A stretch of 64,000 bases of DNA, from the NCBI GenBank assembly GCA_945862265.1, contig CAMAXP010000002.1:96204-160203 (forward strand), read 5' to 3'. The position numbers and the translations under genes are program-made. Origin of the DNA: Bordetella parapertussis (GTDB lineage Bacteria > Pseudomonadota > Gammaproteobacteria > Burkholderiales > SG8-39). This document shows positions 37,059 through 52,506 of this stretch, piece by piece. Every line of letters begins with the position of its first letter. Positions within the stretch are counted from its first letter, which is position 1. The notes beneath the pieces are model-generated. The model worked only from the letters and a program-made list of their open reading frames with translations, was not told where the DNA came from and did no database searches.

Positions 37059-37077
37059 AGCCGGCAAAGGAGTGAAG

Positions 37078-37401: not shown

Positions 37402-38555
37402 ATGCGCCTAGATACTGCACTCTCGATCGCCGACCTCGCGGCCGCGGCGCGCCGCCGGCTGCCGGCGAGCATCCATGGCTATGTCAGCGGCGGGTCCGAG
37501 GACCAGGCCTCGCTCGAGGGCAACCGCGCCGCGTTCGGCCGCTGGCGTTTCGTGCCACGGATGCTGGTCGACGTGTCGAAGCGCTCGCAGTCGGTAGAGA
37601 TTTTCGGCGTCACGCACGCCTCGCCGGTGGGGATCGCGCCGATGGGCGTATCGGGCCTGTGCTGCTTTGACGGTGACATCGCGCTGGCCCGCGCTGCGGT
37701 GGCGGCGGGCGTGCCTTCGGTGCTGAGCGCCGCGTCCACGGTGCCGCTGGAACGAGTGATGGCCGAGGCGCCGGGCACCTGGTACCAGGCCTACCTGCCG
37801 GCGCAGAAGGAGGTGATCGGCCCGTTGCTCGAGCGCCTCAAGGCTGCCGGGGTCGGCGTGCTGGTGCTGACGCTCGACGTGCAGGTCGCCTCGGTGCGCG
37901 AGAACGAAGTGCGCAACGGGTTCAGCGTCCCGCTGCGCTTCACGCCCAAGCTGGTGATCGGCGGCATGCTGCGCCCGCGCTGGATGGTCGAGACTTTTGC
38001 CCGCACGCTGCTCTCGCGCGGCATCCCGCATTTCGAGAATTTCACCGCCGAGCGCGGCGGTCGCATCATTACTGCGGCCAAGGGCGACCACCGCGCAGGC
38101 CGCGCGGCAATGACCTGGGACGAGGTGCAGTGGATCCGCGAGCGCTGGCCCGGCAAGCTGGTGCTCAAGGGCGTCCTGCACGCTGCGGATGCGCTGCGCG
38201 CGAGGCAGACCGGTTGCGACGGCGTGATCGTCTCCAACCACGGCGGCCGCCAGCTCGACGGCGCGATCGCCACATTGGATGCGCTGCCGGCCATCGTGGC
38301 CGCGGCGCCCGGCTGGCCCGTGATGCTCGACGGCGGGGTGCGCCGCGGGACGGATGTGCTGAAGGCGCTGGCCCTCGGGGCACGGCTCGTGTTCGTAGGA
38401 CGGCCCGCGATGTACGGCCTCGCGGTGGGCGGCGAGGCGGGCGTGGCGCGTGCGCTGGAATTGCTCAGGCGCGAAGTGGACACCGACCTCGCGCTGCTCG
38501 GCTGTCCCGACGTGCGGTCCCTCTCGTCGGAGACCCTGGCCCCCGCCGCTCGTCC

Positions 38556-38559
<4 letters not shown>
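37402..38559 (+). CDS. FMN-dependent alpha-hydroxy acid dehydrogenase/oxidase (LldD / glycolate oxidase family)
   Basis: 385 aa. Family motifs SNHGGRQLD and GVRRGTDVLKALALGA. Confidence 0.85.
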
Positions 38560-39950
<1,391 letters not shown>

Positions 39951-40037
39951 GCGCGATAGTAAGGCCAATTGGCGGGATGGCCGAATCTGCGGCACCATGC
40001 CGGTCGATTCCCACTGTACGAAAGGCCCGATTCCTCC

Positions 40038-41210
40038 ATGCGTATCGTAGAAATCCGTGAGCGCACCGCGCCCATCGCCTCGCCCATCGCCAACGCGTTC
40101 ATCGACTTCTCGAAGATGACGCTGAGCCTCGTGGCCGTGATCACCGACGTCGTGCGCGACGGCCGACCGGTGGTCGGCTACGGCTTCAACTCCAACGGCC
40201 GCTACGGCCAGGGCAGCCTGATGCGCGAGCGCTTCATCCCGCGCGTGATCGAAGCCGACCCGGCCAGCCTCGTCAATGAGGCCGGCGACAACCTCGACCC
40301 GCACAAGGTCTGGGCGACGATGTACAAGAACGAGAAGCCCGGCGGCCACGGCGAGCGCTCGGTGGCGATGGGCACGATCGACATGGCGGTGTGGGACGCG
40401 GTGGCCAAGATCGCCGGCAAGCCGCTCTTCCGGATGCTCGCCGAGCAGCAGGGGCGGGTGGCCGACCCCCGCGTCTTCGTCTACGCCGCGGGCGGCTACT
40501 ACTACCCCGGCAAGGGCATTGAGGGATTGGTGACCGAGATGCAGGGATACCTTGACCGCGGTTACACGGTGGTGAAGATGAAGATCGGCGGCGCGCCGCT
40601 CGCCGACGACTGCAAGCGGATCGAGGCCGTGCTGCGCATGCTGCCCTCGGGCTGCCGGCTCGCGGTGGATGCCAACGGGCGCTTCGACCTGCCCACCGCG
40701 ATTGCCTATGCCAAGGCGCTGGGGGGCTACCACCTCTTCTGGTACGAGGAGGCCGGCGACCCGCTCGACTATGAACTGCAGGCGAAGCTCGCCGAGCACT
40801 ACGCGGGGCCGATGGCGACAGGCGAGAACCTTTTCTCCATGCAGGACGCGCGCAACCTCATCCGCTACGGCGGCATGCGGCCGGAGCGCGACTGGCTGCA
40901 GTTCGACTGCGCGCTGAGCTACGGCCTCGTCGAATACCTGCGCACGCTGGAGATGCTGAAGGCCCATGGCTGGGGCTGGGATCGCTGCATCCCGCACGGC
41001 GGGCACCAGATGTCACTGAACATCGCGGCGGGGCTGGGCCTCGGCGGCAACGAGTCGTACCCGGACCTCTTCCAGCCCTACGGCGGGTTCCCGGACGGCG
41101 TGCGCGTGGAGAAGAGCTACATCAAGATGCCGGAGTTGCCGGGTATCGGGTTCGAAGGGAAGGCGGACTTGTATGCCGAGATGCGGAGCCTCTCGGCAGG
41201 CGCTACTTGA
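40038..41210 (+). CDS. enolase-superfamily enzyme (mandelate racemase / muconate lactonizing family)
   Basis: ATG at 40038. MR/MLE pattern (VKMKIGG, LAVDANGRF, FWYEEAGDP). Confidence 0.8.
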   Translation: MRIVEIRERTAPIASPIANAFIDFSKMTLSLVAVITDVVRDGRPVVGYGFNSNGRYGQGSLMRERFIPRVIEADPASLVNEAGDNLDPHKVWATMYKNEKPGGHGERSVAMGTIDMAVWDAVAKIAGKPLFRMLAEQQGRVADPRVFVYAAGGYYYPGKGIEGLVTEMQGYLDRGYTVVKMKIGGAPLADDCKRIEAVLRMLPSGCRLAVDANGRFDLPTAIAYAKALGGYHLFWYEEAGDPLDYELQAKLAEHYAGPMATGENLFSMQDARNLIRYGGMRPERDWLQFDCALSYGLVEYLRTLEMLKAHGWGWDRCIPHGGHQMSLNIAAGLGLGGNESYPDLFQPYGGFPDGVRVEKSYIKMPELPGIGFEGKADLYAEMRSLSAGAT

Positions 41211-41239
41211 CGTCCTTCAGGATGGGCCTGCCCCTGCCT

Positions 41240-41632
41240 TTACTTGGGCCGATGGAGCGCGCAGAGCTTGTTGCCGTCGGGGTCGCGCACGTAGGCCAGG
41301 TACATGGCGCCCAGGCTGCCGTTGCGCAGTCCCGGCGGGCTCTCGATCGAGGTGCCGCCGTTTGCCACGGCCTTGTCGTGGAACGCGACTACCTGCTCGG
41401 GCGAGTCGCACTTGAAGCCGAGGGTGGCGCCGTTGGCAAACGTCGCCGGCTCGTTATTGATGGGCTCGCTCACGCCGAAGGTGCCGCCGCCATGGCGGTA
41501 GAAGACCCGCATGTGGCCGCTGTCGGACTTGTGGCGGTTGCCTTCGCCCGCGCCCAGCGTGCCGAGCACGGCGTCGTAGAAGCGCTTGGAGCGCTCGATG
41601 TCGTTGGTCCCGACCATGATGTGGTTGAACAT
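41240..41632 (-). CDS. VOC-family (glyoxalase/bleomycin-resistance fold) protein
   Basis: 130 aa. MFNHIMVGTNDIERSKRFYDAVLG is a typical VOC N-terminus. Host-like G+C. Confidence 0.8.
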   Translation of the reverse strand: MFNHIMVGTNDIERSKRFYDAVLGTLGAGEGNRHKSDSGHMRVFYRHGGGTFGVSEPINNEPATFANGATLGFKCDSPEQVVAFHDKAVANGGTSIESPPGLRNGSLGAMYLAYVRDPDGNKLCALHRPK

Positions 41633-41742
41633 GTCTAGTCTCCTGTGTGGGTGAACGTTGCCAATTGTAGATGATGGGCCTTCCCCTGCCGGACTTCCTG
41701 CCGGTCAACGGGTGCGGCTAAAGGGGGCAGGTCAGACCCTGT

Positions 41743-42081
41743 CTAGACCGACAAGACGATGCGAAGCCCGGCGTCAACTTCAGCCAGCAATCGAGGGTTG
41801 AGTTTTCCGATTCGCTCCGTGAGAAACGTCTTGTCCACGGTGATGATCTGAGAGACGTTTGCGACGGACACTTTCGCAAGGCCGGTTCCCTTGACCGGGA
41901 GGCGAACGTTTCCCGGAGCGTCGGCCAAGCGCAGGTTCGATGTAACGACCGCCGCAACAACCGTACTGATGCCGCTGTCATTGAAGCTATTTGCGGAAAC
42001 GATAAGCAACGGCCGTCGGAAGCCAGGGCCAGACCCGGTGGGCTCCGGCAGAGAAGCCCACCAAATCTCGCCGCGGCGCAC
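41743..42081 (-). CDS. type II toxin, MazF/PemK family endoribonuclease
   Basis: 112 aa. RRGEIWWASLPEP...RPLLIVS...VVAAVVTS pattern of the PemK/MazF fold. 1-nt overlap with the upstream antitoxin. Confidence 0.85.
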   Translation of the reverse strand: MRRGEIWWASLPEPTGSGPGFRRPLLIVSANSFNDSGISTVVAAVVTSNLRLADAPGNVRLPVKGTGLAKVSVANVSQIITVDKTFLTERIGKLNPRLLAEVDAGLRIVLSV

Positions 42082-42323
42082 TACCGCTTGCCTCGGGCGA
42101 GTGTGCGATGCTGAAGCAAGGAAAGCTCTGCATCGAGTGATGAGTCCTCTCGACCTGGGCCATAGATCTCGTTGAGGCGGGCCGTTATCAAGTCGTCCTG
42201 GTGCTCATTGACAAGTGCCGCAAGCGCCTTGGAGTAAAGCTCACTTCGAGAAACCCCCAAACGCTCAGCGAGCTGCTCGCCTGAACGAAAAACACGATCG
42301 GGAATTGAGATTGCCGTTTTCAT
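42081..42323 (-). CDS. ribbon-helix-helix (CopG-type) antitoxin
   Basis: 80 aa. MKTAISIPDRVFRSGEQLAERLGVSRSELYSKAL is an RHH N-terminus. Confidence 0.8.
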   Translation of the reverse strand: MKTAISIPDRVFRSGEQLAERLGVSRSELYSKALAALVNEHQDDLITARLNEIYGPGREDSSLDAELSLLQHRTLARGKR

Positions 42324-42372
42324 ATCATAAGTATAACACCGGTTATACCCGCGTAAACTGCCCTTCCACGGG

Positions 42373-42442
42373 GTCTAACGTAGAAGTCATCGGCGCTGCG
42401 CGGCTTTATCGCACAGCGCCCGCGTGGACTGCCGGGTTGGGC
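42373..42442 (-). repeat. attC site
   Basis: Plus strand reads GTCTAAC ... GTTGGGC. Internal stem GGCGCTGCGCG / CGCACAGCGCC with 1 mismatch. It ends 3 nt before the next cassette's stop. Confidence 0.7.
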
Positions 42443-42444
42443 AT

Positions 42445-42987
42445 TTACTTGTTCTCAGAATCATCTTTAACCTGCCTCGATTTCCATTTGGAATAGAAGT
42501 ACGCTCCTCCTGAGACGATCCCCGTAACAGTTGCTGCAACCATGATAACTGGCGCTACCGTCACGATTAGAGGCGCACTCGTTATTCCAGCCGCGACACC
42601 TAAAGCTCCCAAACCAGTTGGTGCTGCTAATGCTGCACCAGCAGCTACCACACCAGAAGTAATGCCTAGTCCCATCGATACTGTTTCTACTTTTTCTGCA
42701 ACTTCTTTGTGATTCTCATCAGCCGCCTTGACTTTAAGAACAACGCGATCAGAAAGCTTCTTTGCCTCACTCGTTGCAGCGGTTGCAAGTTCTTTTACCT
42801 TCGTGAATGCGGCTTTTGTATCTTCATGATCGATAGCGTCACCAATCGCGTGTTGGGCTGATTTTCCAGCGGCTAACGCTACCGCGCTCGCCTTACTCGC
42901 AGCCTCCTGCGCTGATGAAAAATTGCGCCTAGCCAACGACGCAGTATTGGCAGCCAATTCGCTCAGTCTCTCAATTCGAGTTTTCAT
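42445..42987 (-). CDS. cassette protein of unknown function: helical N-terminal domain plus C-terminal glycine-zipper membrane domain
   Basis: 180 aa with RBS GGAGAAGG upstream. Residues 1-100 are A/K/E/S-rich. Residues ~105-165 are G/A/V/T-rich hydrophobic (GLGITSGVVAAGAALAAPTGLGALGVAAGITSAPLIVTVAPVIMVAATVTGIVSGG). AT-rich third codon positions are unlike the host. Confidence 0.7.
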   Translation of the reverse strand: MKTRIERLSELAANTASLARRNFSSAQEAASKASAVALAAGKSAQHAIGDAIDHEDTKAAFTKVKELATAATSEAKKLSDRVVLKVKAADENHKEVAEKVETVSMGLGITSGVVAAGAALAAPTGLGALGVAAGITSAPLIVTVAPVIMVAATVTGIVSGGAYFYSKWKSRQVKDDSENK

Positions 42988-43028
42988 TCCTACCTTCTCC
43001 TGATCCGATGGATTCGCAAATCGGTTAT

Positions 43029-43136
43029 GCCCAACGTATGAGCTTAGCCGTCACTCTTCCCATATCAAGACGTGAAGTGTGCGGGCAAGCGAAGGTCTCA
43101 ACAAACACGTATTCGAACCGTCATGCTTTGTTGGAG
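43029..43136 (-). repeat. attC site (atypical, long; boundaries uncertain)
   Basis: GCCCAAC at 43029 and GTTGGAG at 43130, the latter overlapping the last 5 codons of the GFA gene. I could not trace a clean stem by eye, and the arms share direct repeats (ACGTAT...CCGTCA) instead. Confidence 0.4.
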
Positions 43137-43579
43137 GGAGTCAAGTCTGGTGGCGGGCTGGCGACAAACCCCTTCTGAAACATGGCAATGCCTTCCGGAA
43201 TTGAAACCCAAGGGCGCTTCGATTGAACCCAAATATGCCTGTCAATCTTGAACCAGTCGAGATTATCGAACGTTCCAGCAGCAATCGTTCGCGTGCCGGG
43301 CCGGAGCTCAGCGGTGTGGGAGATAGTTGTTCCGCAGGTGGGGCAGAAATTCATCTTCAACCAACGCCCGCTTTCGCCGGAGCGATGCTCACGCTCCACA
43401 AGTTGCCCTTGAAGGATTTCGACCGACTCCTCAGGAAACGAGGCAAGGACAGCAAAGGCGCTCGCCAGCCTTCGCTGGCAAAACCTGCAGTGGCAGACCG
43501 TACCAACGGCAGGTTTGCCATGCACAACGTATCGAACGGCGCCGCAGGCGCAACCACCAGAATGGGTTTCGTCCATCAT
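43121..43579 (-). CDS. GFA-family (CENP-V / glutathione-dependent formaldehyde-activating-like) zinc protein
   Basis: 152 aa. Cys pattern GGCACGAVRY...CHCRFCQR...CPTCG is characteristic of the GFA domain. Confidence 0.8.
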   Translation of the reverse strand: MMDETHSGGCACGAVRYVVHGKPAVGTVCHCRFCQRRLASAFAVLASFPEESVEILQGQLVEREHRSGESGRWLKMNFCPTCGTTISHTAELRPGTRTIAAGTFDNLDWFKIDRHIWVQSKRPWVSIPEGIAMFQKGFVASPPPDLTPSNKA

Positions 43580-43613
43580 TTGCTCCTAGAGAGAGGCAAG
43601 GGTCATCCGTGAC

Positions 43614-43703
43614 GGCTAACGTTTTGGTGAACGGCGTGCTGAGGTCGTCGCCCGCAATTTTGCACAGTGGCAGCCGGCCTGTCCGTTCCACCTGCAGTTA
43701 GCG
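43614..43703 (-). repeat. attC site
   Basis: GGCTAAC-GTTTTGGTGAACGGCG ... GTCCGTTCCACCTGCA-GTTAGCG with complementary arms. The ParE stop codon lies inside the GTTAGC box. Confidence 0.75.
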
Positions 43704-44006
43704 GGCACGCCTCGGACGACCTGGCCAACTTGAAGGACTGCGTGCGTGATGGAGTACGGCTAGCACGGAAGTCCGTTTCAGCTGAACGACGTAGAAGACG
43801 AGGTACGGAAACCGCGTGATGACAGCTCGTCGGACGTTGCGATAGACGACTGGACTTGCCTGCGGATGTTCACGGACGAACTCCAGCTTCTCCCGCAAGG
43901 CACCCAAGTATTGCTCACCGAGCCCAGGCATCTGTGATTCGTACCATTCGAAGGCGGACTGGATGTCACTTTCAGCCCTGGGACGGAGAATGAATTGCGG
44001 GGTCAT
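43698..44006 (-). CDS. type II toxin, ParE/RelE family
   Basis: 102 aa. ...RPRAESDIQSAFEWY...RRAVITRFPYLVFYVV pattern of ParE-like toxins. 4-nt overlap with the antitoxin. Confidence 0.8.
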   Translation of the reverse strand: MTPQFILRPRAESDIQSAFEWYESQMPGLGEQYLGALREKLEFVREHPQASPVVYRNVRRAVITRFPYLVFYVVQLKRTSVLAVLHHARSPSSWPGRPRRAR

Positions 44007-44230
44007 GAAGCCCGACGAACGCGGGCAAAGACCTCTTCTAAGGAAGACCCGGCGTCGGGATCGGACTCGTACTCCGCTAATCGCCGGTCAAGCTCTTCCT
44101 TCTGCCATTCGGTAAGCGCCAGGGCATCGGGGACGCAAGAGATGCTGTCCCAAATAGCCTCAACGAGATCCACACGTTCCTCCAAAGGAAGGGCGAGGAT
44201 CTCCGCCACCAGTTCATTTTTCATGTTCAT
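44003..44230 (-). CDS. addiction-module antitoxin (TIGR02574-like, ParE-associated)
   Basis: 75 aa. LVAEILALPLEERVDLVEAIWDSI...LTEWQKEELDRRLAEYESDP is the typical 'putative addiction module component' pattern. Confidence 0.75.
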   Translation of the reverse strand: MNMKNELVAEILALPLEERVDLVEAIWDSISCVPDALALTEWQKEELDRRLAEYESDPDAGSSLEEVFARVRRAS

Positions 44231-44255
44231 AGCGTAGCACGTTCGCCAATCTGCA

Positions 44256-44300
44256 CGCTAACGCCGGCCTTCAGCTGCAAGGCAATGTCGGGCGTTCTGG
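44256..44300 (-). repeat. attC site (short, degenerate)
   Basis: CGCTAAC-GCC ... GGC-GTTCTGG. The outer stem ACGCC/GGCGT and an inner CCTTCAGCTGCAAGG hairpin are visible. The right core deviates from GTTRRRY. Confidence 0.4.
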
Positions 44301-44314
44301 GCTCACTCGTGCAC

Positions 44315-45145
44315 CTACGCCTTGCGAGCGATCAACTCAATGGGAGCGACTCTGTTCCGGGAAACATTCTCGATCATGTTTTGAACCTTTGTCGGTGCTT
44401 CCTTCCCCATCAGAATGTGAAGACCGAGGGGCGGGGGACCGTCTGCTACAGCTGAATTTTCTTTGAGACGCTCGAAAAAATCCAGTGCAAATTCTCGACG
44501 ATCTCGCTCACTGACGATCTGGAAGCCTGCAGCCATCAGCGAATGCTTGTAGTTTGCCGGTGACGCCAACGAACTCGCTTTCGCTACGGTTGCCCACGGA
44601 ACCGGGTATTTCAGTTGATCACCACCAACTTCCATGATGTCGTAGATCCCGAAGACCCCACCTGGCCTGAGAACGCGCCAAACCTCCATGGCCAGTGACG
44701 CTTTGTCCGGGATGTTCATACCAACGTGCAGCATGAACGCCTTGTCGACGGTTGCGTCAGGCAAATTCATGGCAAGTGCGTTGCCTTGCGATAGCTTGAC
44801 CCGATTCTCCAGCCCCAGCCAGGAGCAGAGCGTATTCCCGGTTTCAACATATTCTTCTGTCAGGTCCATTCCGGTTACTTGGCACCCATACGTCCGTGCC
44901 GCGAAACGGCTCGCCCCCCCAATTCCACACCCAACATCCAGTACATGATCTTCAGGCCGAATACCAATCTGATCGAGGAAAGAACGTGTCGCCATCCGGC
45001 CGCCGATGTGAAATTCATCTACAGGGGCAAGATCTTCAATGGTGACAGTTTCCGGTGTCTTCCCCAGCTTCTCAACACCGGCACGTATTGCGCTGAGGAG
45101 ATCGCCCCGCGTGTAATGGTTCGCAACCAAGTTCAGATCGATCAT
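44315..45145 (-). CDS. class I SAM-dependent methyltransferase
   Basis: ATG at 45145 behind AGGAGGA. Motif I VLDVGCGIGGASRF and post-I GMDLT. The 34 upstream codons of the ORF-track call are read-through of the attC. Confidence 0.8.
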   Translation of the reverse strand: MIDLNLVANHYTRGDLLSAIRAGVEKLGKTPETVTIEDLAPVDEFHIGGRMATRSFLDQIGIRPEDHVLDVGCGIGGASRFAARTYGCQVTGMDLTEEYVETGNTLCSWLGLENRVKLSQGNALAMNLPDATVDKAFMLHVGMNIPDKASLAMEVWRVLRPGGVFGIYDIMEVGGDQLKYPVPWATVAKASSLASPANYKHSLMAAGFQIVSERDRREFALDFFERLKENSAVADGPPPLGLHILMGKEAPTKVQNMIENVSRNRVAPIELIARKA

Positions 45146-45169
45146 TTGGGTCCTCCTGGTCGTATGCCA

Positions 45170-45260
45170 GCCCAACGTCGTGGTGAACGGCGGGTGCGTG
45201 TAGCGGTTCCGAAGAAGAACAGGACCACTTTCGCCCGTCCGTTCCACCTAAGTGTTAGGC
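45170..45260 (-). repeat. attC site
   Basis: GCCCAAC-GTCGTGGTGAACGGCGG ... CCCGTCCGTTCCACCTAAGT-GTTAGGC with complementary arms. Confidence 0.8.
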
Positions 45261-45273
45261 GCGAAATCAACAG

Positions 45274-45633
45274 TTACTCACGAATACGGACCCGTTCGGG
45301 TTCGATGATCCACAGCCGACCTCGTGTGGGCTCGGTCGCAAGCACCGGCAATGCCGACTTCAGCAAATCCAGGGTGTTCTCGACGCTCTGCGTGTGTGGG
45401 CGCAATACCCAGATGCCCGCGTGACTCGCCGGAGGATAGACACGGATATCGGAGAAATCGAGATCGAAGGTGACAAGGATCCGATCCTCCGCCTGAGAGG
45501 CGTCAAAGACGCGTGGATCGGGGTTGCCTCCCATCTGTTCGTCGAGGACCGTGTGCACGTCATGCCCCGGCTCACGCAGCAAGGCTTCCGCGTCACGAGG
45601 TAGATTCTCGTCAAGCTTGAACCGAGCAGGCAT
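45274..45633 (-). CDS. DUF5615-family PIN-like putative toxin
   Basis: 119 aa. FKLDENLPRDAEALL...ILVTFDLDF pattern (Mut7-C/PIN-like) downstream of a DUF433 gene. Confidence 0.7.
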   Translation of the reverse strand: MPARFKLDENLPRDAEALLREPGHDVHTVLDEQMGGNPDPRVFDASQAEDRILVTFDLDFSDIRVYPPASHAGIWVLRPHTQSVENTLDLLKSALPVLATEPTRGRLWIIEPERVRIRE

Positions 45634-45642
45634 CCTGCAAGA

Positions 45643-45870
45643 TTATGCGGGGATGGGAACGATGCGCTCTCGCGCCAAGTCTGCGGCATAGCTGATCGCC
45701 GCGGGAATATGTTCGGGCCGAAGCGAGGGGTACTGATCGAGAATGCGCTCCGGCGTTTCGCCGGCGGCGAGATTGTCGAGAACGACAGATACCGGTATTC
45801 GTGTGCCGCGGATGCACACTGCTCCGTGCATGATCTGGGGATCGGTCGTGACGTAAGGTTTCCAGTCCAT
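45643..45870 (-). CDS. DUF433-family putative antitoxin
   Basis: 75 aa. DPQIMHGAVCIRGTRIPVSVVLDNLAAGETPERILDQYPSL is the DUF433 signature. Confidence 0.75.
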   Translation of the reverse strand: MDWKPYVTTDPQIMHGAVCIRGTRIPVSVVLDNLAAGETPERILDQYPSLRPEHIPAAISYAADLARERIVPIPA

Positions 45871-45921
45871 CGCAGATGCCTCCGAATATGGCTTTCAATA
45901 TAGCACCGCGCGTTCCTACGT

Positions 45922-46008
45922 GCCTAACGTGTTGTTCTGCGGCGGGCCAGTTGGATGCCAGCATTCGCGAGGCGCCGATGGCCCGTCCGCAGCAACAAAG
46001 GGTTCGGT
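45922..46008 (-). repeat. attC site
   Basis: GCCTAAC-GTGTTGTTCTGCGGCGGGCC ... GGCCCGTCCGCAGCAACAAAGG-GTTCGGT with long complementary arms. Confidence 0.7.
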
Positions 46009-46026
46009 CCCAATGACACAAACATA

Positions 46027-46374
46027 CTACGCCGCTTGCAACAGGAACTCGACCTTCACAGCCTCAAACGGAAACACAATGCTGCCTTCTTCCGTGCGAT
46101 TGAGAACGCCAGCATTAAGCAGGGCGGTAACATCGCCATGAACAGCCTTTACGTCGCGGCCTACACGTCGTGCTGCTTCTCGTATGGAGACTGGACCCGC
46201 GCCGCACAGCGCCTTGAGTAGCTCCCAGCGCTTGGCGCTGAGCACTTTCCAAAGCAGCTCAGGGCTAGCAAAGCTTATACGCGCGGACTTTTGAGATTTC
46301 CCGGTCTTCCAGGATTGCACGAAATCAGACATTGAATCGGCCGGCGAACGCACATCAAGAGTTACGGTTTTCAT
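46027..46374 (-). CDS. HTH transcriptional regulator / antitoxin (TumA-like)
   Basis: 115 aa with a winged-HTH segment (RWELLKALCGAGPVSIREAARRVGRDVKAVHGDV). Overlaps the upstream DUF6516-like gene by 20 nt. Confidence 0.65.
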   Translation of the reverse strand: MKTVTLDVRSPADSMSDFVQSWKTGKSQKSARISFASPELLWKVLSAKRWELLKALCGAGPVSIREAARRVGRDVKAVHGDVTALLNAGVLNRTEEGSIVFPFEAVKVEFLLQAA

Positions 46375-46651
46375 TGTTCCACCTCGCTATGTCTCGTTGA
46401 AAATCAGCGACCAGCTGATCCGGTGTAGTGAACTTGTAGATACTCTCTTTGTCGCCGTAGTGCCTATGGTCACCTTTGCCAACTTCGTTGTCGTAGCGAA
46501 GGACGCACACATCACGCACCACGTAAGCTAGCCTGTACTTGAACCTGTGAGTGGAACCTGCAACAGGCTTCGGGACTTGCCAAAGCACCAACTCCGCGAA
46601 TGCTGCTTCTGAGTATGTGATTCGAGTACGGACAAGCTCGACAGCGTTCAT
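46355..46651 (-). CDS. DUF6516 / TumE-like putative toxin
   Basis: ATG at 46651 (alternative TTG at 46696). WQVPKPVAGSTHRFKYRLAYV...RYDNEVGKGDHRHY matches the pattern I associate with DUF6516. Confidence 0.6.
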   Translation of the reverse strand: MNAVELVRTRITYSEAAFAELVLWQVPKPVAGSTHRFKYRLAYVVRDVCVLRYDNEVGKGDHRHYGDKESIYKFTTPDQLVADFQRDIARWNNENRNS

Positions 46652-46880
46652 GTTGGAGACGATAACAACACAAGGCTTTGTTGTCAATAGCTCCAACGAT
46701 CACGAATGGGGTTATGTGGGGCCGAACTATATTTGGCTGAATTTTTTAGGTGAAAGTTTTCGTTGACACTCTGTGGACCCCGCTCATATCTCAGTTCGAG
46801 ATTCGTGCTCCGCAGTGTCATCCATCCTTGTCTTCAGCACGTTATGCCTGCTTGCCCGAAACCACGAGACCTCCGCAGAC

Positions 46881-47087
46881 ATGGCATCCCCCGGATCGCC
46901 GCCTTCCCCCAAGCCCCGTCTGCTCGATCGCGAGGCGGAGGTGACGGCGTTCCTCAACCACCTTGTGCGGACTCGCGACGTGGCGGCGGCGACGCAGAAC
47001 CAGGCGCTGCCGGAACGGCTCGCGCGGATGAGCGGGACGAATTGGCTGACGGGCTCGCTCCCATGCGGGATAATGGTGCTGCAATGA
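46881..47087 (+). pseudogene. intI: decayed integron integrase remnant (delta-intI)
   Basis: Translation ...[54 protein letters not shown] aligns with three separate pieces of the intact IntI (PPKLLEQ; [27 protein letters not shown]; [14 protein letters not shown]). DNA identity is visible (GAGGCGGAGGTGACGGC, GCGACGCAGAACCAGGCGCTG). All catalytic regions are missing. Confidence 0.7.
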
Positions 47088-48199
47088 GATCCCGACTTCT
47101 ACCGGCGCTGGTACTGGCGCTCGCTTGTGCGACTGCCGGCGCCCAGACCTACCGCTCCGACGAGCACAGCTTCACCGTTACCCGGGTCCTCTCCGGCCTC
47201 AGCCATCCCTGGGCGCTCGCATTCCTGCCGGACGGCCGCATGCTGGTGACCGAACGCGAAGGCCGCCTGCGCATCGCCCGGGACGGCAAGCTGGACCCGC
47301 AGCCGGTCGCAGGCCTGCCGCAGGTCGCGCCGCACGGCCAGGGCGGGCTGATGGACGTGGTTCTGCATCCGAATTACGCGCAGAACAACCTCGTCTACTG
47401 GACCTTTTCGGCGCGCGGGGCCGATGGTTTCGGCACCGAGGTGGCGCGCGGCAAGCTGGTGGGCAACCGCATCGAAGGCGCGGAGGTGATCTTTCGTCAG
47501 AGCCCGAAGGGCGCCACCGGCCGGCATTTCGGCTCGCGCCTCGTGTTCGGCCGGGCCGGGTTTCTCTACGTCACGCTCGGCGACCGCGGCGAGCAGGAGC
47601 GCGCGCAGAAGCCGGACGACCACGCCGGCTCGGTGATCCGGCTGCACGACGACGGCAAGCTGCCTAAAGACAATCCTTTCGTGGGCCAGGCCGGCTGGAA
47701 GCCGGAGAAGTTCACGCTCGGCAACCGCAACCAGCAGGGCGCGGCGCTGCACCCGGCGACCGGCGTGCTGTGGACCCACGAGCACGGCCCGCAGGGCGGC
47801 GACGAGGTGAACGTGATCCGCGCGGGAGCGAACTACGGCTGGCCGGTGATTACCTACGGCGTCAACTACGGCATCGGTACGAAGATCGGCGAGGGCACGC
47901 ACAAGGCCGGCATGGTGCAGCCGGTGCATACCTGGGTGCCCTCCATCGCGCCTTCGGGCATGGCGTTCTACACCGGCGACAGGTTTGCGCGCTGGAAGGG
48001 CGACCTGTTCGTCGGTGCGCTCAAGGACCAGATGCTGGTGCGCCTGAAGCTCGACGGTGAAAAGGTCGTGAAGGAAGAGCGCCTGCTGCGCGGCGTGATG
48101 GGCCGCATCCGGGACGTGAGGGCCGGGCCCGACGGCTACCTGTACCTGGTGACCGACGAGCCCAACGGTGGCGTCGCGAGACTCGAACCGGCAAACTGA
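47084..48199 (+). CDS. PQQ-dependent soluble sugar dehydrogenase (YliI/Asd family)
   Basis: ATG at 47084 overlaps the stop of the intI remnant frame. Signal MRSRLLPALVLALACATAGAQ. Beta-propeller motifs HPWALAFLPDGRMLVTER and HEHGPQGGDEVN. Host-like G+C. Confidence 0.8.
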   Translation: MRSRLLPALVLALACATAGAQTYRSDEHSFTVTRVLSGLSHPWALAFLPDGRMLVTEREGRLRIARDGKLDPQPVAGLPQVAPHGQGGLMDVVLHPNYAQNNLVYWTFSARGADGFGTEVARGKLVGNRIEGAEVIFRQSPKGATGRHFGSRLVFGRAGFLYVTLGDRGEQERAQKPDDHAGSVIRLHDDGKLPKDNPFVGQAGWKPEKFTLGNRNQQGAALHPATGVLWTHEHGPQGGDEVNVIRAGANYGWPVITYGVNYGIGTKIGEGTHKAGMVQPVHTWVPSIAPSGMAFYTGDRFARWKGDLFVGALKDQMLVRLKLDGEKVVKEERLLRGVMGRIRDVRAGPDGYLYLVTDEPNGGVARLEPAN

Positions 48200-48285
48200 G
48201 CAGGCATCATGGCGAAACACGTCCCTGCCGTAAAAGTCAAAGGCTCGGTGCGCGAACAAGGCCGGATCTGATTCCCCGCGTTTCG

Positions 48286-48372
48286 GCATAGCGCTTTGGT
48301 CTGCAGCGGGCCAGAACTGAATGTTGGTCCCGCGCGATGCGGGCTGCCCGTCCGCAGCACCTGTAGTTATGC
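48286..48372 (-). repeat. attC site (terminal, distal end of array 1)
   Basis: GCATAGC-GCTTTGGTCTGCAGCGGGCC ... GGGCTGCCCGTCCGCAGCACCTGTA-GTTATGC. The distal core reads GCTATGC on the cassette strand (GTT changed to GCT). The stop codon of the 48367 ORF lies in the core. Confidence 0.7.
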
Positions 48373-48690
48373 TTCAACACGAATCAGTTGCCCCGGTCGG
48401 ACGGCTGTGATCGCGGTCAACCCCGCCGGAACAAGAGGCAGCAGGTCCTCGAGGGCATTACTCGTAGCGCAGAGTACGACCACGCCAAGACGTCGCTTCG
48501 AGATGTTCTGCTGAAACTCAAGATTCTGATCGCCGGTCAAGAATACCGAGAACCCAGCGTTCTCGGCTTGGGTCAGCAATGCACCATTCTTGAGACCGGC
48601 CCACGATTCTTGGTGAACCGTACGAGCGTCGTGGCCGACCAAGTACGGCGCTAGCTGCCGAGGAAGCTGCTCATCAAGCAGAATGCGCAA
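48367..48690 (-). CDS. DUF5615-family PIN-like putative toxin
   Basis: 107 aa. MRILLDEQLPRQLAPYL...VFLTGDQNL. Second, divergent copy of this family in the region. Confidence 0.7.
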   Translation of the reverse strand: MRILLDEQLPRQLAPYLVGHDARTVHQESWAGLKNGALLTQAENAGFSVFLTGDQNLEFQQNISKRRLGVVVLCATSNALEDLLPLVPAGLTAITAVRPGQLIRVEA

Positions 48691-48907
48691 GATCGCTCAC
48701 GGCTTCGTGAGCAGCTTCCAATGACGCGACCGCTTGCTCTCGGGAAACACTTGGAAAGGAGTCGAGAAACTCGTCGAGACTGTGGTTTCGTTCGAGGTAG
48801 TCGATCAGATTGCGGAATGGAACGCGAGTCCCGACAAACACGGGCGTGCCTCCAAGAATATCCGGATCGCTGTGAACGCTGTGAACGACTGGCGCTGTGT
48901 TTGGCAT
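48674..48907 (-). CDS. DUF433-family putative antitoxin
   Basis: ATG at 48907. DPDILGGTPVFVGTRVPFRNLIDYLERNHSLDEFLDSFPSV. The upstream part of the ORF-track call runs into the attC. Confidence 0.75.
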   Translation of the reverse strand: MPNTAPVVHSVHSDPDILGGTPVFVGTRVPFRNLIDYLERNHSLDEFLDSFPSVSREQAVASLEAAHEAVSDLAHSA

Positions 48908-48952
48908 GTCGGTCCCTCTGTTCGTCAATTTTAGCTCATCGCCCGCGTTGAG

Positions 48953-49042
48953 GCATAACGCTGTGGTCAACGGCAGGCGCGCATGGTGGTCGATGAGAAA
49001 GTCATGGCCGCTTTCGCCTGTCCGTTGCGCCTAGAGTTATAC
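48953..49042 (-). repeat. attC site
   Basis: GCATAAC-GCTGTGGTCAACGGCAGG ... GGCCGCTTTCGCCTGTCCGTTGCGCCTAGA-GTTATAC. The right arm is nearly identical to the attC at 52410. Confidence 0.8.
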
Positions 49043-49322
49043 GTTGCGATTTTTCGGTGAGACGTCCGGTCACATACTTATGTAAGACGCTGGCAATCAG
49101 CGTTTGATAGGGAACACCCTCTTCAAGCGCTTTAACCTGTATGTCGCCAAGATCAATGGAAGACAACCGAATATTCACCCTGCGATCCTTAATTGCAGTG
49201 GCCCTTGCCGCGGTTTTTAGTTTTGCAAGCTCGCCCTTGGTGGCAATAGATTTGAGTTTGCCTTTTTCGTAGGCATCCAATACTTCTCTTTCGTAGGCAT
49301 CAAGTTTCGGCATTCGGATCAC
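49002..49322 (-). CDS. brnA: BrnA-type (CopG-like) antitoxin
   Basis: 106 aa. RRVNIRLSSIDLGDIQVKALEEGVPYQTLIASVLHKYVTG. The last ~13 codons are encoded by the attC. Confidence 0.75.
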   Translation of the reverse strand: MIRMPKLDAYEREVLDAYEKGKLKSIATKGELAKLKTAARATAIKDRRVNIRLSSIDLGDIQVKALEEGVPYQTLIASVLHKYVTGRLTEKSQRITLGATDRRKRP

Positions 49323-49593
49323 CCTTTATCAACCTCTCCCTCGTTGCCTTGCGGCTGGGAATCACGGTCTTCAGGAAGTAATAGTCGTCTTCCTCTACAT
49401 ACGGTACCAAGTACGCGTAGCCATCGATTGCAACTATCATGACTTTTTGACGCGGGTAGCGGGCCAGGTTTGGATGGTCTGTCATATCTAACAGGCCACC
49501 CGATTCGACGGCCACCACGACACGCTCGAAAGACATTCCTCGTTCCGCCTTGAGTGATTCGTTCTTTTCAGAATTCCAGCGAAACGGCTTCAT
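49300..49593 (-). CDS. brnT: BrnT-type (DUF497) toxin
   Basis: 97 aa. FRWNSEKNESLKAERGMSFERV...AYLVPYVEEDDYYFLKTVIPSRKATR. Overlaps brnA by 23 nt. Confidence 0.7.
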   Translation of the reverse strand: MKPFRWNSEKNESLKAERGMSFERVVVAVESGGLLDMTDHPNLARYPRQKVMIVAIDGYAYLVPYVEEDDYYFLKTVIPSRKATRERLIKGDPNAET

Positions 49594-49652
49594 TGGCTTA
49601 GCATAAACGACTGTGTGCCTTTTGTCACCACACTTGGCCGAAGCTTAGCAGC

Positions 49653-49739
49653 GTATAACGTGGAAACCACTGGCGCGCGTGCGCCGGTCGGCGATTTGCG
49701 CGGTAGCTCACGCGCGTCCGGTGCGTTGCCGGGTTATGC
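49653..49739 (-). repeat. attC site
   Basis: GTATAAC-GTGGAAACCACTGGCGCGCG ... CGCGCGTCCGGTGCGTTGCCGG-GTTATGC. The HicB stop lies in the core. Confidence 0.75.
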
Positions 49740-49946
49740 CGCAATATCGACGTACTCAACGCGACTTGCCGGTTGCGGAATAGCGATCCCATCTTCGCGC
49801 ATGCCGTCGAGATGGAATTCGATCGCTTCGCGGATTTGCGATTCCGCCTCCTCTACGGTGGCACCTGTCGCGACACACCCCGGAAGGTCGGGCACGTAAG
49901 CCGAGAAATTACCCTCGGCCTTCTCGATCACGATGGCATAGCGCAT
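49734..49946 (-). CDS. hicB: HicB-family antitoxin
   Basis: 70 aa. MRYAIVIEKAEGNFSAYVPDLPGCVATGATVEEA is the HicB/UPF0150 N-terminal domain. Confidence 0.85.
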   Translation of the reverse strand: MRYAIVIEKAEGNFSAYVPDLPGCVATGATVEEAESQIREAIEFHLDGMREDGIAIPQPASRVEYVDIAA

Positions 49947-49953
49947 GGGAGCC

Positions 49954-50142
49954 TCACTTCTTCAGACCAGACTGTTTCAGGATACTGTTTAGAGTGCCAG
50001 GTGCCAAGTCGTCGCTTGGCTTTCCCGGGACGGTGACACGGCCTGGCTTTGAAGAATGCTTGAATTGCCGGTGGCTGCCGCGTGTAGCCACCAGAAACCA
50101 GCCATCGTCACCAAGAATTCTCAGTATTTCGCTGACCTTCAT
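49954..50142 (-). CDS. hicA: HicA-family mRNA interferase toxin
   Basis: 62 aa. ILGDDGWFLVATRGSHRQFKHSSKPGRVTVPGK...LAPGTLNSILKQSGL. Confidence 0.85.
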   Translation of the reverse strand: MKVSEILRILGDDGWFLVATRGSHRQFKHSSKPGRVTVPGKPSDDLAPGTLNSILKQSGLKK

Positions 50143-50194
50143 GCAATCAGCATATCAAGGACCCGGTTTCTATGCCGGGAGAGCCAGCTTTGCG

Positions 50195-50284
50195 ACATAA
50201 CGTGGAGGCGTGCGGCGCGCCGCGATAACTGCTTGCCAACGGGACACTTGAGCCGGCGCGTCCGGCACCGCCGCCAGGTTATGT
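50195..50284 (-). repeat. attC site
   Basis: ACATAAC-GTGGAGGCGTGCGGCGCGCCG ... CCGGCGCGTCCGGCACCGCCGCCAG-GTTATGT. Confidence 0.75.
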
Positions 50285-50288
50285 GTCA

Positions 50289-50582
50289 TCAGAGTTGATA
50301 GCGGGTGATGTCGAGCGATCCGTGAAAGACACCGAGGACATCGATGTTTCCGTCGCCTTTGATGAGGTATGCGATTCGGTAGTGACCGTAGAGCAGTATT
50401 CGCACGTGTCGCGATGAGGCAGCGTAGCGGGAGCCGATTTCGGGAAATCTGGCGAGATCCTGCACCCGCTCGTAGATACCGAGAACCGTTCGCGTGGCCG
50501 CCTGAGGGTTTTCCGCCGCTACGTATTCAAAGATGTCTGTCAGCCAGCGCTGGGCCTCTTCGGTCCAGCTTATTTCTGCCAT
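50289..50582 (-). CDS. type II toxin, ParE/RelE family
   Basis: 97 aa. AQRWLTDIFEYVAAENPQAA...HYRIAYLIKGDGNIDVLGVFHGS. Confidence 0.8.
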   Translation of the reverse strand: MAEISWTEEAQRWLTDIFEYVAAENPQAATRTVLGIYERVQDLARFPEIGSRYAASSRHVRILLYGHYRIAYLIKGDGNIDVLGVFHGSLDITRYQL

Positions 50583-50755
50583 GACCGAATGCGGCGACCC
50601 ATTTCTTCGTTTGAGATGGTGCGTTTCGCGTCGGAGTCAGCGAGCCCGTTCTCGACCATGACGTGCAAGGCGAGCTCGCGCACGATTTCTTCGCGAGAAC
50701 TGTCCTCAGGCTGCCCTTGAATCAGGCGGGTGAGTTCTTCCTTTGCAGTAGCCAT
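50570..50755 (-). CDS. small acidic putative antitoxin (ParE-associated)
   Basis: 61 aa. Called from its position (13-nt overlap upstream of the ParE gene) and its size. I do not recognise the family. Confidence 0.55.
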   Translation of the reverse strand: MATAKEELTRLIQGQPEDSSREEIVRELALHVMVENGLADSDAKRTISNEEMGRRIRSWQK

Positions 50756-50811
50756 GACAACCTCCGATTTGAATGCAATTCTGCCTCAGTTTTTTGATCT
50801 GTGGGAATGAC

Positions 50812-50877
50812 ACATAACGTTCGCGTTGAGCGGCGCACCGCTTGTTGGTGCGTCCGGTCTCGAACGCGTCGTTAGAT
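50812..50877 (-). repeat. attC site
   Basis: ACATAAC-GTTCGCGTTGAGCGGCGCACC ... GGTGCGTCCGGTCTCGAACGCGTC-GTTAGAT, 66 bp with complementary arms. Confidence 0.7.
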
Positions 50878-50915
50878 GGCAGAAGGTGCATACATTCAGT
50901 CCTGTCAGTTCCGCC

Positions 50916-51587
50916 TCACTGTACTGGTCGCGGCACGGGCGGGTAGTACTGAGGTGCCTCACCGCGACTGAACATGCCGTAATCGCGCATCACCTCAAAC
51001 ACACGAAAGTACTCGGTCGTCGAATCGGCAAAAAGTTTCCGACCAAAGTCGACGCCGGCGTCAGATGACGGCACGTCAATAAGATGCGCAAAAACTCCGG
51101 GTCTGTAGACGCTCTCGAACACGTCACGTTTCCAGGGCGTTTCAACCGACAATTCTCGATTCCGAGATTCCGAGGCGACGACAAAAGTCGGTGGCCGCCT
51201 CTTGGGATCGTTGTACGGACTCAGTCGCTCGGGACGCCACGCCGATTTTTCGAGCCGCTCCTCATGGAGGACCTGTGCGATCCGAATGCGGTAGTCGTCG
51301 AAGACTTTCTCGCGGCCTGCTTCTTGAACCGCATGGTGCTTTGGATCGACCCGCCAAGCGATCATTGATCCCTCGTCCTGCCATATCTGATATGAGAGCA
51401 GGAGATTCTTGCGATTCAAGCTCTTGAACCGGTCGATGAATAGGCAGCCTCCCATGGCTTCCAGGGATGGTTTCAATGAAGCCGCGAGATCCAGATAGCG
51501 ATTGATCTGCCCTTCTTTTATTTGAACTTCGAAAAATTGCGAAATCAAGGCCGTTAGCACCTTATGAGATGGGCAGGAGGTCAACAA
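50916..51587 (-). CDS. cassette protein, tandem ABM-like (antibiotic biosynthesis monooxygenase / Dabb fold) domains; function unknown
   Basis: 223 aa. The first half (LISQFFEVQIKEGQINRYLD...YQIWQDEGSMIAWRVDPKHHAVQ) looks ABM-like, and the second half is of similar length. Start uncertain (TTG at 51587, no clear RBS). Confidence 0.55.
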   Translation of the reverse strand: MLTSCPSHKVLTALISQFFEVQIKEGQINRYLDLAASLKPSLEAMGGCLFIDRFKSLNRKNLLLSYQIWQDEGSMIAWRVDPKHHAVQEAGREKVFDDYRIRIAQVLHEERLEKSAWRPERLSPYNDPKRRPPTFVVASESRNRELSVETPWKRDVFESVYRPGVFAHLIDVPSSDAGVDFGRKLFADSTTEYFRVFEVMRDYGMFSRGEAPQYYPPVPRPVQ

Positions 51588-51631
51588 AAATGCCAGCGTG
51601 CCTCTTGAGAAGCGCCATTCCTACTATAGCC

Positions 51632-51718
51632 ATCTAACGTCTTGGTGAACGGCGGGCCAGCACTGTGGTTGAACAAGGTGTGACGCTTCCGGCCCGTCCG
51701 TTCCACCTGTAGTTGGGC
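51632..51718 (-). repeat. attC site
   Basis: ATCTAAC-GTCTTGGTGAACGGCGGGCC ... GGCCCGTCCGTTCCACCTGTA-GTTGGGC. Confidence 0.8.
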
Positions 51719-51728
51719 TTCACCCGGG

Positions 51729-52040
51729 CTACCGCTGCGGAACCAGTCGGATTTCGATATCGCACCCGACCGCCGCGGCATACTTCTTCAGGGAGGTCAG
51801 CGATGGGGCATGTTTGCCAGCTGATTCGAGACGCGATACCGCGCTCTTGGTCGTGCCCATGCGCGAGGCGACCACCTCTTGGGTGAGTCCGGCACGAGCG
51901 CGTGCAGCGAGCATTTGGTTCGCAACGGCGTATTCGACCGCAAGAGCTTCATAAGCGGCCTTGAATCCCCGGCGCTTGCTCGCTTTCTTAAGAAAGGCGT
52001 CGTGGTCGTGCCGAACGGGCTGGTACTTGAGTTCTGCCAT
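51729..52040 (-). CDS. XRE-family HTH antitoxin (HigA-like)
   Basis: 103 aa. HTH LTQEVVASRMGTTKSAVSRLE downstream of a gp49-like toxin. Confidence 0.8.
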   Translation of the reverse strand: MAELKYQPVRHDHDAFLKKASKRRGFKAAYEALAVEYAVANQMLAARARAGLTQEVVASRMGTTKSAVSRLESAGKHAPSLTSLKKYAAAVGCDIEIRLVPQR

Positions 52041-52359: not shown

Positions 52360-52409
52360 GACGCGAGGTTCGCATATTTGAGAACACGGGTCAAGCGTTG
52401 AATGGTGAA

Positions 52410-52499
52410 GCCCAACGTCATGGTCAACGGCGGGCGGGTGACGCCGTTCGCGAAAAATTGAAGGCCGCTTTCGCCTGTCCGTTGCACCTATAGTTGGGC
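52410..52499 (-). repeat. attC site
   Basis: GCCCAAC-GTCATGGTCAACGGCGGGCGG ... GGCCGCTTTCGCCTGTCCGTTGCACCTATA-GTTGGGC. Confidence 0.8.
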
Positions 52500-52506
52500 A
52501 TCGTGA

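Follow-up and report, generated by a model that had tools for sequence, protein, structure and literature searches.

Two arrays of gene cassettes lie close together within the 64,000-nucleotide stretch of DNA analyzed here (the window), and integrase sequence is found at the head of each. Are these two integrons placed side by side, one of them dead, or a single ancestral array that a rearrangement has split? An earlier note, made from the letters of the window alone, had offered both readings. The window is part of a 171-kb metagenome contig (ENA ERZ27280265, k141_1553304) from an uncultured soil/freshwater Burkholderiales bacterium. Our analysis favors the first reading: the upstream array has an attI region of its own (attI2) and an integrase remnant of a distinct lineage, and that lineage is intact at the orthologous site in relatives. 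We consider it likely that 41644–47066 is a complete but dead platform lying upstream of an intact integron of a sister lineage at 48284–55119, and that the two are alleles of one locus that have become joined. The two integrons are co-oriented, head to tail, and in the inner one most of the integrase gene is gone.

An integrase remnant of a second lineage

The plus strand at 46881–47066, to the right of array 2, carries an integrase pseudogene, delta-intI2, which was identified by blast, by profile, and by alignment with intact relatives. The earlier note had described 46881–47087 as pieces of an IntI collinear with the intact integrase of the window, intI1 (54085–55119), and all of these approaches bore this out. 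Compared pairwise with intI1, the remnant gave significant alignments at both the DNA and the protein level: 46930–47013 matched 54260–54343 at 69 of 84 nucleotides (blastn, E = 4e-20), a second collinear block matched at 24 of 31 nucleotides, and blastp returned 24 identities in 32 amino acids (E = 7e-11). A profile of 55 IntI homologues, run over 46600–47200, picked up the proposed frame only (32.3 bits, profile positions 58–84), with an additional weak collinear match at positions 126–141, and TIGR02249 and PF13495 both matched the same 26 residues. The intI remnant is real, far beyond chance. No frame of 46600–47200 showed a match to PF00589 or any similarity to the catalytic C-terminal domain, and nothing past approximately codon 146 was found. 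A homologue search with the 68-amino acid translation returned two clusters only: one is a strain variant of the remnant itself, and the other is an N-terminal fragment of an integrase.

Among the 55 homologues, P0048 is identical to the second piece of the remnant in 26 of 26 residues, compared with 21 of 26 for intI1. P0048 is encoded on a contig of the metagenome-assembled genome (MAG) GCA_037134035.1, here L170. At the nucleotide level, the remnant is 91% identical to the integrase type of L170 and of the related locus L172 and 82% identical to intI1. These identities assign it to an integrase lineage other than that of the neighboring intI1; genes of this lineage are called intI2 below.

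Alignment with L170 resolved the region into three blocks. Window positions 46734–46927 match L170 59–258 (77% over 200 nucleotides) and cover the attI region, the start codon, and the N terminus; 46932–47013 match 377–458 (91.5% over 82 nucleotides) and form piece 2; and 47002–47052 match 564–614 (76% over 51 nucleotides) and form piece 3. The intact intI2 of L172 (342 amino acids, 93% identical to P0048) yields the same three blocks. In the three-way alignment, delta-intI2 consists of the start codon and 16 codons, a 114-nucleotide deletion, 27 codons, a 117-nucleotide deletion, and approximately 17 codons, leaving 62 codons of a gene truncated near codon 146 of approximately 340. The three collinear pieces of the earlier note are all present, but the first is longer than had been noted and begins at the original start codon (MASPGSPPSPKPRLLD aligned with MTSPGSPPP..PKPRLLDQ). 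Both internal deletions are multiples of three. The 117-nucleotide deletion is flanked in L170 by a 10-nucleotide direct repeat, GGCGCTGCTG, which accounts for its being in frame, and selection need not be invoked.

Next to the remnant stands GSDH, a gene for a sugar dehydrogenase described below, and the join between delta-intI2 and the GSDH leader is a GGG microhomology present in both parents. The note had placed the stop of the remnant frame at 47085–47087, overlapping the GSDH ATG at 47084. The overlap is there, but the last 17–20 nucleotides of that frame are native GSDH leader and not intI.

The two attI regions

The dead integron has its predicted attI and promoter region at 46720–46880 (plus strand), upstream of the start codon of delta-intI2, and blastn aligns this region collinearly with the sequence that precedes intact intI2 in L170 and L172 (77–82%). 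Its likely crossover core is GCCGAAC at 46721–46727, with the counterparts GCTTAAC in L170 and CCTAAC in L172. Similarity to both relatives starts at the core, and the sequences beyond it are unrelated, as is expected at an attI crossover point. In the related assemblies L174, L175, and L176, a 98-nucleotide deletion (46728–46825) starts directly after the putative core and takes out the TGAC-rich direct repeats of attI2; a 112-amino acid open reading frame (ORF), P0001, has been called across the scar.

The intact integron has its own attI and promoter region, attI1 (53846–54084, plus strand), with the core GCCCAAC at 53846–53852. This region is conserved in L168, L169, and L173 and measures approximately 240 nucleotides in the intI1 family, and similarity among relatives stops at the GCCCAAC core. 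attI1 and attI2 differ in type yet share a motif of approximately 34 nucleotides, GTCATCC...TTCA.C.CGTTA.GCC, at an equal distance from the start codon. Regions of the attI1 family (53846–54084; L168:9764–10000; L169) also contain two internal direct repeats approximately 100 nucleotides apart, a GTCATCC...CGTTA.GC unit and an AAAAAT.C.TGTTATTCG unit, which may be binding sites for the integrase or a regulator.

attC sites and cassettes of array 2

Array 2 occupies 41644–46720, with all of its features on the minus strand. attC sites were sought with two covariance models. The first (R1) was trained on window sites including those of array 2 and was not used as evidence for them; to avoid circularity, the second (R2) was trained on six array-1 sites only and run on 30000–48250. 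In R2, a helix of three pairs is misaligned by a single column; the effect on the scores can only be downward. R2 recovered four array-2 sites, all on the minus strand, and the only other matches above 12 bits were plus-strand echoes (12–15 bits) of three of them. The sites are 45920–46010 (72 bits with R1, 40.1 bits with R2), with the R' core GCCTAAC|G at 45922–45929; 45168–45262 (82 bits with R1; 61.8 bits, E = 6e-15, with R2), which is 79.5% identical to the array-1 attC 52408–52501 over an 83-nucleotide blastn alignment; 43612–43705 (71 bits with R1; 46.5 bits, E = 1e-10, with R2); and, marginally, 42371–42444 (18.8 and 18.1 bits; DNA fold z −2.0), to which a related attC of L173 is 87% identical. 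The attC model also gave a 20-bit match (E = 0.0035) at 10493–10585, in G+C-rich host DNA far from the arrays. This match, probably a false positive, defines the noise against which the 18-bit site at 42371 is to be judged.

Six attC-like sites had been proposed in the earlier note, and those at 42373 (marginal), 43614, 45170, and 45922 stand. The remaining two, at 43029 and 44256, gave no covariance-model match and fold no better than shuffled sequences. The first (43029–43120) is a degenerate cassette boundary with an R'-like half only, ACGTTGGGC (fold z −0.76), and the second (44256–44305) is a short hairpin at a cassette boundary, AACGCC/GGCGTT, that is not a supported attC (fold z +0.22). 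As the note had also found, there is no convincing terminal attC in 41633–41742: inspection by eye, folding, and both covariance models revealed only L'-like fragments there, none of them significant. The distal end of the array (41644–41742) is eroded, and homology to the glyoxalase flank of L172 stops at approximately 41643. An Rfam scan of the whole window at gathering thresholds gave zero matches.

A consensus fold of nine long attC sites from both arrays has 23 base pairs, 14 of them with compensatory changes. R'' pairs with R' and L'' with L'; a spacer of 5 unpaired nucleotides lies between the two helices, and one A of L'' is extrahelical. The array-2 attCs are imperfect palindromes with RYYYAAC/GTTRRRY cores, and they show covariation. 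Every detected attC scores far higher on the minus strand and has extra bases in the 5' L'' arm, which fits minus-strand cassettes read from the right. With four model-supported attCs and its own integrase reduced to 62 codons, array 2 classifies, from its sequence, as a cluster of attC sites lacking an integron integrase (CALIN).

Seven cassette units were identified to the left of the remnant, the number given in the note. Cassette 1 encodes a TumA-like HVO_A0114 regulator (46027–46374) and a TumE toxin (46355–46651) (PF25212 and PF20126), with a sigma-70-like promoter match at 46687–46659 (10/12); our promoter scans report consensus-level matches only and are not used as evidence. Cassette 2 (45274–45870) holds a DUF5615 (PIN-like) and DUF433 pair in Pfam terms, and another cassette is found in its place in L174 and L175. 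Cassette 3 (44315–45145) encodes an S-adenosylmethionine-dependent methyltransferase (PF13649 and PF08241), cassette 4 (43698–44230) a ParE toxin with a PF09720 antitoxin (Pfam), cassette 5 (43121–43579) a GFA-family protein (PF04828, 97.6 bits), and cassette 6 (42445–42987) a 180-amino acid protein with no family match. Cassette 7 encodes a PemK/MazF-like toxin (41743–42081; PF02452, 88 bits) and an 80-amino acid antitoxin candidate (42081–42323).

The intact integron

On the other side of GSDH, array 1 (48284–53852, minus strand) consists mostly of toxin-antitoxin pairs and has approximately nine cassettes, compared with seven in array 2. The covariance model placed its minus-strand attCs at 48284–48374, 48951–49044, 49651–49741, 50193–50286, 50810–50879, 51630–51720, 52408–52501, and 53167–53227. 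The integrase gene intI1 (plus strand) encodes 344 amino acids; the protein matches TIGR02249, a model that covers the additional domain specific to IntI, at 469.3 bits (cut-off 265) over profile positions 1–315 of 315 and also matches PF13495 and PF00589. Its GLRLRE, HTLRHSF, LLGH, and MIYTHV motifs fall in columns that are nearly invariant across the 55 homologues, and by this alignment intI1 carries the tyrosine-recombinase catalytic residues (R, K, HxxR, H, and Y). With an intact intI1, eight minus-strand attCs, and an attI region that ends at its core, 48284–55119 classifies as a complete integron in the IntegronFinder sense. When intI1 and the L170 integrase were compared for signs of recombination, identity rose to 88–92% in the last 200 nucleotides, but this stretch is also the catalytic region.

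No cassette is shared between arrays 1 and 2 at the nucleotide level, where the attCs alone match, and some array-1 cassettes are common to L168 and L173. The cassette at 50200–50820 (a 61-amino acid antitoxin candidate and ParE) is 97.3% identical to L173:10124–10744, whose host genes are approximately 81% identical to those of the window, and this indicates a probable recent exchange of the cassette between species.

Two integrase types at one chromosomal site

The gene order of the region is HflX, MR_MLE, glyoxalase, array 2, remnant, GSDH, array 1, intI1, GlxA-type/TctC/sulfatase, and FAD oxidase. By the ORF list and annotation, HflX extends to 39953 (minus strand) and is followed by the MR_MLE dehydratase (40038–41210, plus strand) and the glyoxalase (41240–41632, minus strand). 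At the other end, the genes for a GlxA-type regulator, a TctC/Bug binding protein, and a sulfatase (55104–58709) form an indel relative to L171 at the extreme 3' end of intI1, and the FAD-binding oxidase (58791–60230, minus strand) is the chromosomal flank that lies directly beside the integrase gene in relatives. The flanks have 64–72% G+C. Two low-G+C blocks (53–60%), at approximately 41.7–46.9 and 48.2–54.0 kb, are parted by one kilobase at 69%.

Relatives retain each integrase type at the FAD-oxidase flank. In L170, attI2 and an intact intI2 are followed after approximately 30 nucleotides by a FAD-oxidase flank that is 94.6% identical to window 58742–59872. In L171, an intI1-type gene (93% nucleotide identity) lies approximately 40 nucleotides from the same flank point, and GlxA, TctC, and sulfatase are absent; its flank is 96% identical to that of the window, compared with 81–83% for L172 and L173. 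L170 and L171 share the flank point but have different integrases, and the two types are therefore alternative occupants of one site. In L172, the order is FAD oxidase, an intact 342-amino acid intI2, an array of approximately 6–8 kb, and a glyoxalase gene 86% identical to 41246–41643, with the similarity ending 11–12 nucleotides past its start codon. The flanks of L172 and L170 thus show that integron 2 is the orthologue of a resident chromosomal integron between the glyoxalase and FAD-oxidase sides. In the window, codon ~146 of intI2 and the FAD-oxidase flank are now approximately 11.7 kb apart, and the intervening block contains GSDH, array 1, attI1, intI1, and three host-type genes.

The type 1 side is seen in another species, L009 (HflX 86% identical in nucleotide sequence). 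There, the HflX start is followed by 97 nucleotides and then GSDH, and window 39970–47066 is absent. Similarity to the window returns at 47067 and continues, at 94.5% identity, as far as the terminal attC core of array 1 (48293); past this point, L009 has a different cassette. L009 and L173 come from the same MAG, JANNWA01. The host genes and FAD-oxidase region of L173 are approximately 81% identical to the window, and GSDH is much closer (94.5%), which suggests that the GSDH/array-1 block was recently exchanged. At L173:9312–9620, an intI1-type gene beside the FAD oxidase has been cut by one internal deletion to approximately 20 start and approximately 8 last codons, with part of attI1 and a short cassette array kept beside it. 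By this comparison, L173 represents an independent integrase loss at the same locus, and integrase loss recurs in the clade. The closest intI1 homologues, L168 and L169, sit at other chromosomal sites; they helped to define attI1 and not the history of the locus.

Two neighboring segments appear to have changed as well. The GlxA stop codon overlaps that of intI1, the indel at 55104–58709 taking the place of the last few intI1 codons. On the HflX side, a metagenome scan of 80 loci revealed no intact partner of the remnant beside MR_MLE homologues and no conserved synteny. MR_MLE homologues (78–90% amino acid identity) in L089, L101, L105, L107, and L116 are preceded by a TctC gene, not by HflX, and MR_MLE may also have relocated in the window lineage.

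We propose that a single illegitimate crossover placed two versions of one sedentary chromosomal integron locus in tandem. The crossover would have taken place at the 3-nucleotide microhomology between codon ~146 of intI2, the resident type 2, and the GSDH leader of type 1. Most likely, DNA would have been taken up from a relative, with homology on the FAD-oxidase side serving as the anchor. Afterward, two short deletions would have shrunk the integrase, one of them between the 10-nucleotide direct repeats. Array 2 is now an orphan, CALIN-like array, and its attCs fall into one structural family with the array-1 sites.

Cassette changes, probably after integrase loss

Comparison with near-identical strains suggests that the orphan array has not been static. 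The window and L008 (98.7% nucleotide identity) are collinear throughout array 2, which has diverged by 0.9%, compared with 1–2.5% in the flanking genes. Array 1 of L008 is without two cassettes (48294–49654), with the junction at a GCATAAC|G core. In L174 and L175 (98–99.5% identical, with the same three-part remnant), a different cassette lies to the left of attC 45920–46010. This cassette, which codes for a secreted protein of 177 amino acids, comes with an attC of its own (39.7 bits), and the switch point is exactly the AAC|G of the core of attC 45920–46010. The three remnant lesions are common to these strains; they most likely predate the strain split, and the cassette change would then have taken place without IntI2.

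Both arrays can be classed as active on this evidence, with cassette changes at the canonical G|TT crossover between near-identical genomes. These data suggest that array 2 is still edited, most simply by IntI1, 7 kb away, or by another integrase in trans. The fit of the array-2 attCs to a model trained on array 1 only, together with the cassette change in L174 and L175, lends indirect support to mobilization in trans.

The dehydrogenase gene between the integrons

GSDH (47084–48199, plus strand) encodes a GSDH/YliI-like pyrroloquinoline quinone-dependent sugar dehydrogenase (PF07995 and TIGR03606) and is of host type, with 69% G+C. We considered whether it might be a cassette and rejected this: there is no attC on its left, its G+C is at host level, and orthologues occur in 80 unrelated contexts. 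Its surviving native leader, 47067–47083 (GGGATAATGGTGCTGCA), begins where homology with L009 resumes. The ATGA that gives rise to the apparent stop/start overlap is part of these 17 nucleotides, which L009 also has. Between strains, GSDH shows 16 nucleotide differences and 99.2% amino acid identity, indicating that the gene is under purifying selection, and it is therefore presumably expressed.

Only 17 nucleotides of native leader survive, so transcription of GSDH must start in or upstream of the remnant, and it is plausible that the gene is read from the former intI promoter. The promoter scan gave a weak hybrid sigma-70-like match at 47046–47074 (9/12), with the −35 element in the remnant and the −10 element in the native leader. 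No LexA-box-like sequence was seen on reading the aligned attI regions by eye, with no formal scan made. L174–L176, which are without 46728–46825, retain GSDH.

GSDH and its downstream flank (47067–48293) are 94.5% identical to L009:1350–2576, and the gene seems to move together with the adjoining end of array 1. Approximately 650 nucleotides downstream of a GSDH orthologue with 81% amino acid identity, L019:11477–11888 holds transposase-like and integrase fragments on the opposite strand, at the contig end; the integrase fragment corresponds to residues 102–143 (64% identity). L014 and L084 have attC-model matches downstream of GSDH. The association of an integron with GSDH may be older than the species studied here.

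Weighing the alternatives

Several observations weigh against a joining of two alleles. No contig holds the proposed donor (GSDH, array 1, intI1, and FAD oxidase) in one piece. In JANNWA01, the one MAG with both ends, another host gene stands at the end of the array that adjoins the FAD oxidase, and the locus has therefore been rearranged more than once. The 7.1-kb HflX–GSDH indel relative to L009 fits either direction, and MR_MLE homologues elsewhere adjoin TctC. In array 2, two of the seven cassette boundaries have no detectable attC and the terminal attC is missing. Finally, homologous recombination between older array variants could explain the difference seen in L174 and L175.

Could the second platform have arisen from the first? 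A tandem duplication of one integron in situ, followed by divergence and decay of the inner copy, agrees with the shared orientation of the platforms, with their single attC family, and with the DUF5615/DUF433 and ParE/PF09720 pairs in both arrays. We regard it as improbable. The remnant has 91% nucleotide identity to the L170/L172 integrase versus only 82% to its neighbor. Moreover, each integrase type is found alone at the same flank in genomes 94–96% identical in the flanking gene, the arrays have no cassette in common at the nucleotide level, only attCs, and the two attI regions are of distinct types.

The second reading of the earlier note, in which one ancestral array was split by an inserted integrase piece and GSDH so that arrays 1 and 2 are halves served by intI1, is not favored and seems to us quite improbable. 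The remnant heads array 2 with approximately 160 nucleotides of its own attI region, in the correct place and orientation and with similarity ending at the core. In L172, the same integrase type heads its own array between FAD oxidase and glyoxalase, and GSDH with the array-1 end junction occurs without array 2 in L009. These findings outweigh the facts that one model fits the attCs of both arrays and that the gap of 2.3 kb is short enough for the 4-kb clustering rule of IntegronFinder (PMC4889954) to merge them.

A maintained small gene or leader peptide is highly improbable as an explanation of the 68-codon frame. Such a gene might be an upstream ORF whose translation is coupled to that of GSDH by the ATGA overlap. 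In its favor, neither of the two in-frame deletions has closed the frame, which terminates at the GSDH start codon; the frame has been called as a gene in several assemblies; and the window and L008 differ within it by three substitutions, each at a third codon position. However, three are too few for a selection test. The ATGA and the last 17 nucleotides are native GSDH leader, so the position of the stop comes from the leader and not from the remnant. One in-frame deletion is explained by the 10-nucleotide direct repeat, which codes for the same residues, stop codons are few in G+C-rich DNA, and the closer of the two database clusters that match (P0001) is the same locus in related strains.

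A metagenome assembly chimera of two strains with different versions of the locus is extremely improbable even though both platform types co-occur in related populations (L170 and L171) and contigs often break at arrays, because the 3-nucleotide microhomology at the junction is far under the apparent assembly k-mer (k141 in the contig name), the delta-intI2/GSDH junction recurs in six independent assemblies (the window, L002, L008, L174, L175, and L176) that come from different samples and pipelines, differ by single-nucleotide polymorphisms, and in three cases have the 98-nucleotide deletion, and no assembler would create the internal deletions of the remnant.

Relation to known integrons

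The joined-allele locus most resembles a CALIN with a nearby intI pseudogene, in that array 2 has attC-bounded cassettes, no working integrase, and an adjoining remnant. Cury et al. 2016 (PMC4889954) defined CALINs as attC clusters without an integron integrase and proposed that they originate by integrase loss. Using a screen for the C-terminal domain and 4-kb clustering, they found intI pseudogenes near 15 of 279 CALINs. Unlike those, the remnant described here is N-terminal only, and the published screen (C-terminal domain, at least 50% of the profile) would miss it. In addition, only 2.3 kb separates array 2 from the array of the complete integron. Under the 4-kb rule, the two would be counted as one, with GSDH as cassette content, and the CALIN label therefore depends on recognizing the remnant.

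According to Nemergut et al. 2008 (PMC2426708), approximately one-third of intI genes are pseudogenes and more than 20% of integron-bearing lineages have more than one intI, and a pseudogene of one clade can occur beside a functional gene of another clade in the same genome. In contrast to those pseudo-integrons, the platforms here are adjacent and co-oriented, with the functional one and a host gene standing where the 3' two-thirds of intI2 was. Our literature search, which covered open-access text only, turned up no description of this geometry.

As in sedentary chromosomal integrons of the Vibrio superintegron type, the arrays are chromosomal, with homogeneous attCs and many toxin-antitoxin cassettes (four of seven in array 2), and array 2 co-diverges with its flanks. 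Toxin-antitoxin cassettes would be expected to stabilize such arrays. The locus differs from that type in its short arrays (seven and approximately nine cassettes) and its uncultured betaproteobacterial host. In clinical class 1 integrons and in complex or hybrid integrons with two cassette regions, intI1 can be cut by an insertion while the array persists and can be serviced by another integrase copy. Those cases involve insertion sequence (IS) or IS common region (ISCR) elements and mobile class 1 backbones, whereas here there is no IS, transposase, or class 1 conserved segment, and the junction is a plain illegitimate one between chromosomal platforms.

The locus is thus a well-documented case of known kinds, an intI pseudogene and a CALIN beside a complete integron, and not a new system; it leaves our understanding of what integrons are unchanged. 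What is noteworthy is the tandem geometry, the breakpoints defined to the base with surviving pre-event states, and the strain-level evidence of continued editing. The origin and continued use of CALINs are usually inferred from statistics across genomes, and this locus provides a resolved natural case in which the pre-event states, an intact intI2 platform and an intI1-type platform, survive in close relatives at the same site. It also points to a weakness of annotation in practice: the standard procedure for integrons would fuse the two arrays, count a host dehydrogenase as cassette content, and overlook the N-terminal remnant. More speculatively, and in our estimate rather unlikely, platform stacking may be a route of array growth, in which an incoming integron lands in the resident integrase gene and services the resident array in trans, here with the trapped GSDH rewired to the stress-responsive region upstream of the dead integrase. 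Were this a general process, many of the long chromosomal arrays and many CALINs would be relics of past mergers that the 4-kb rule and C-terminal screens conceal.

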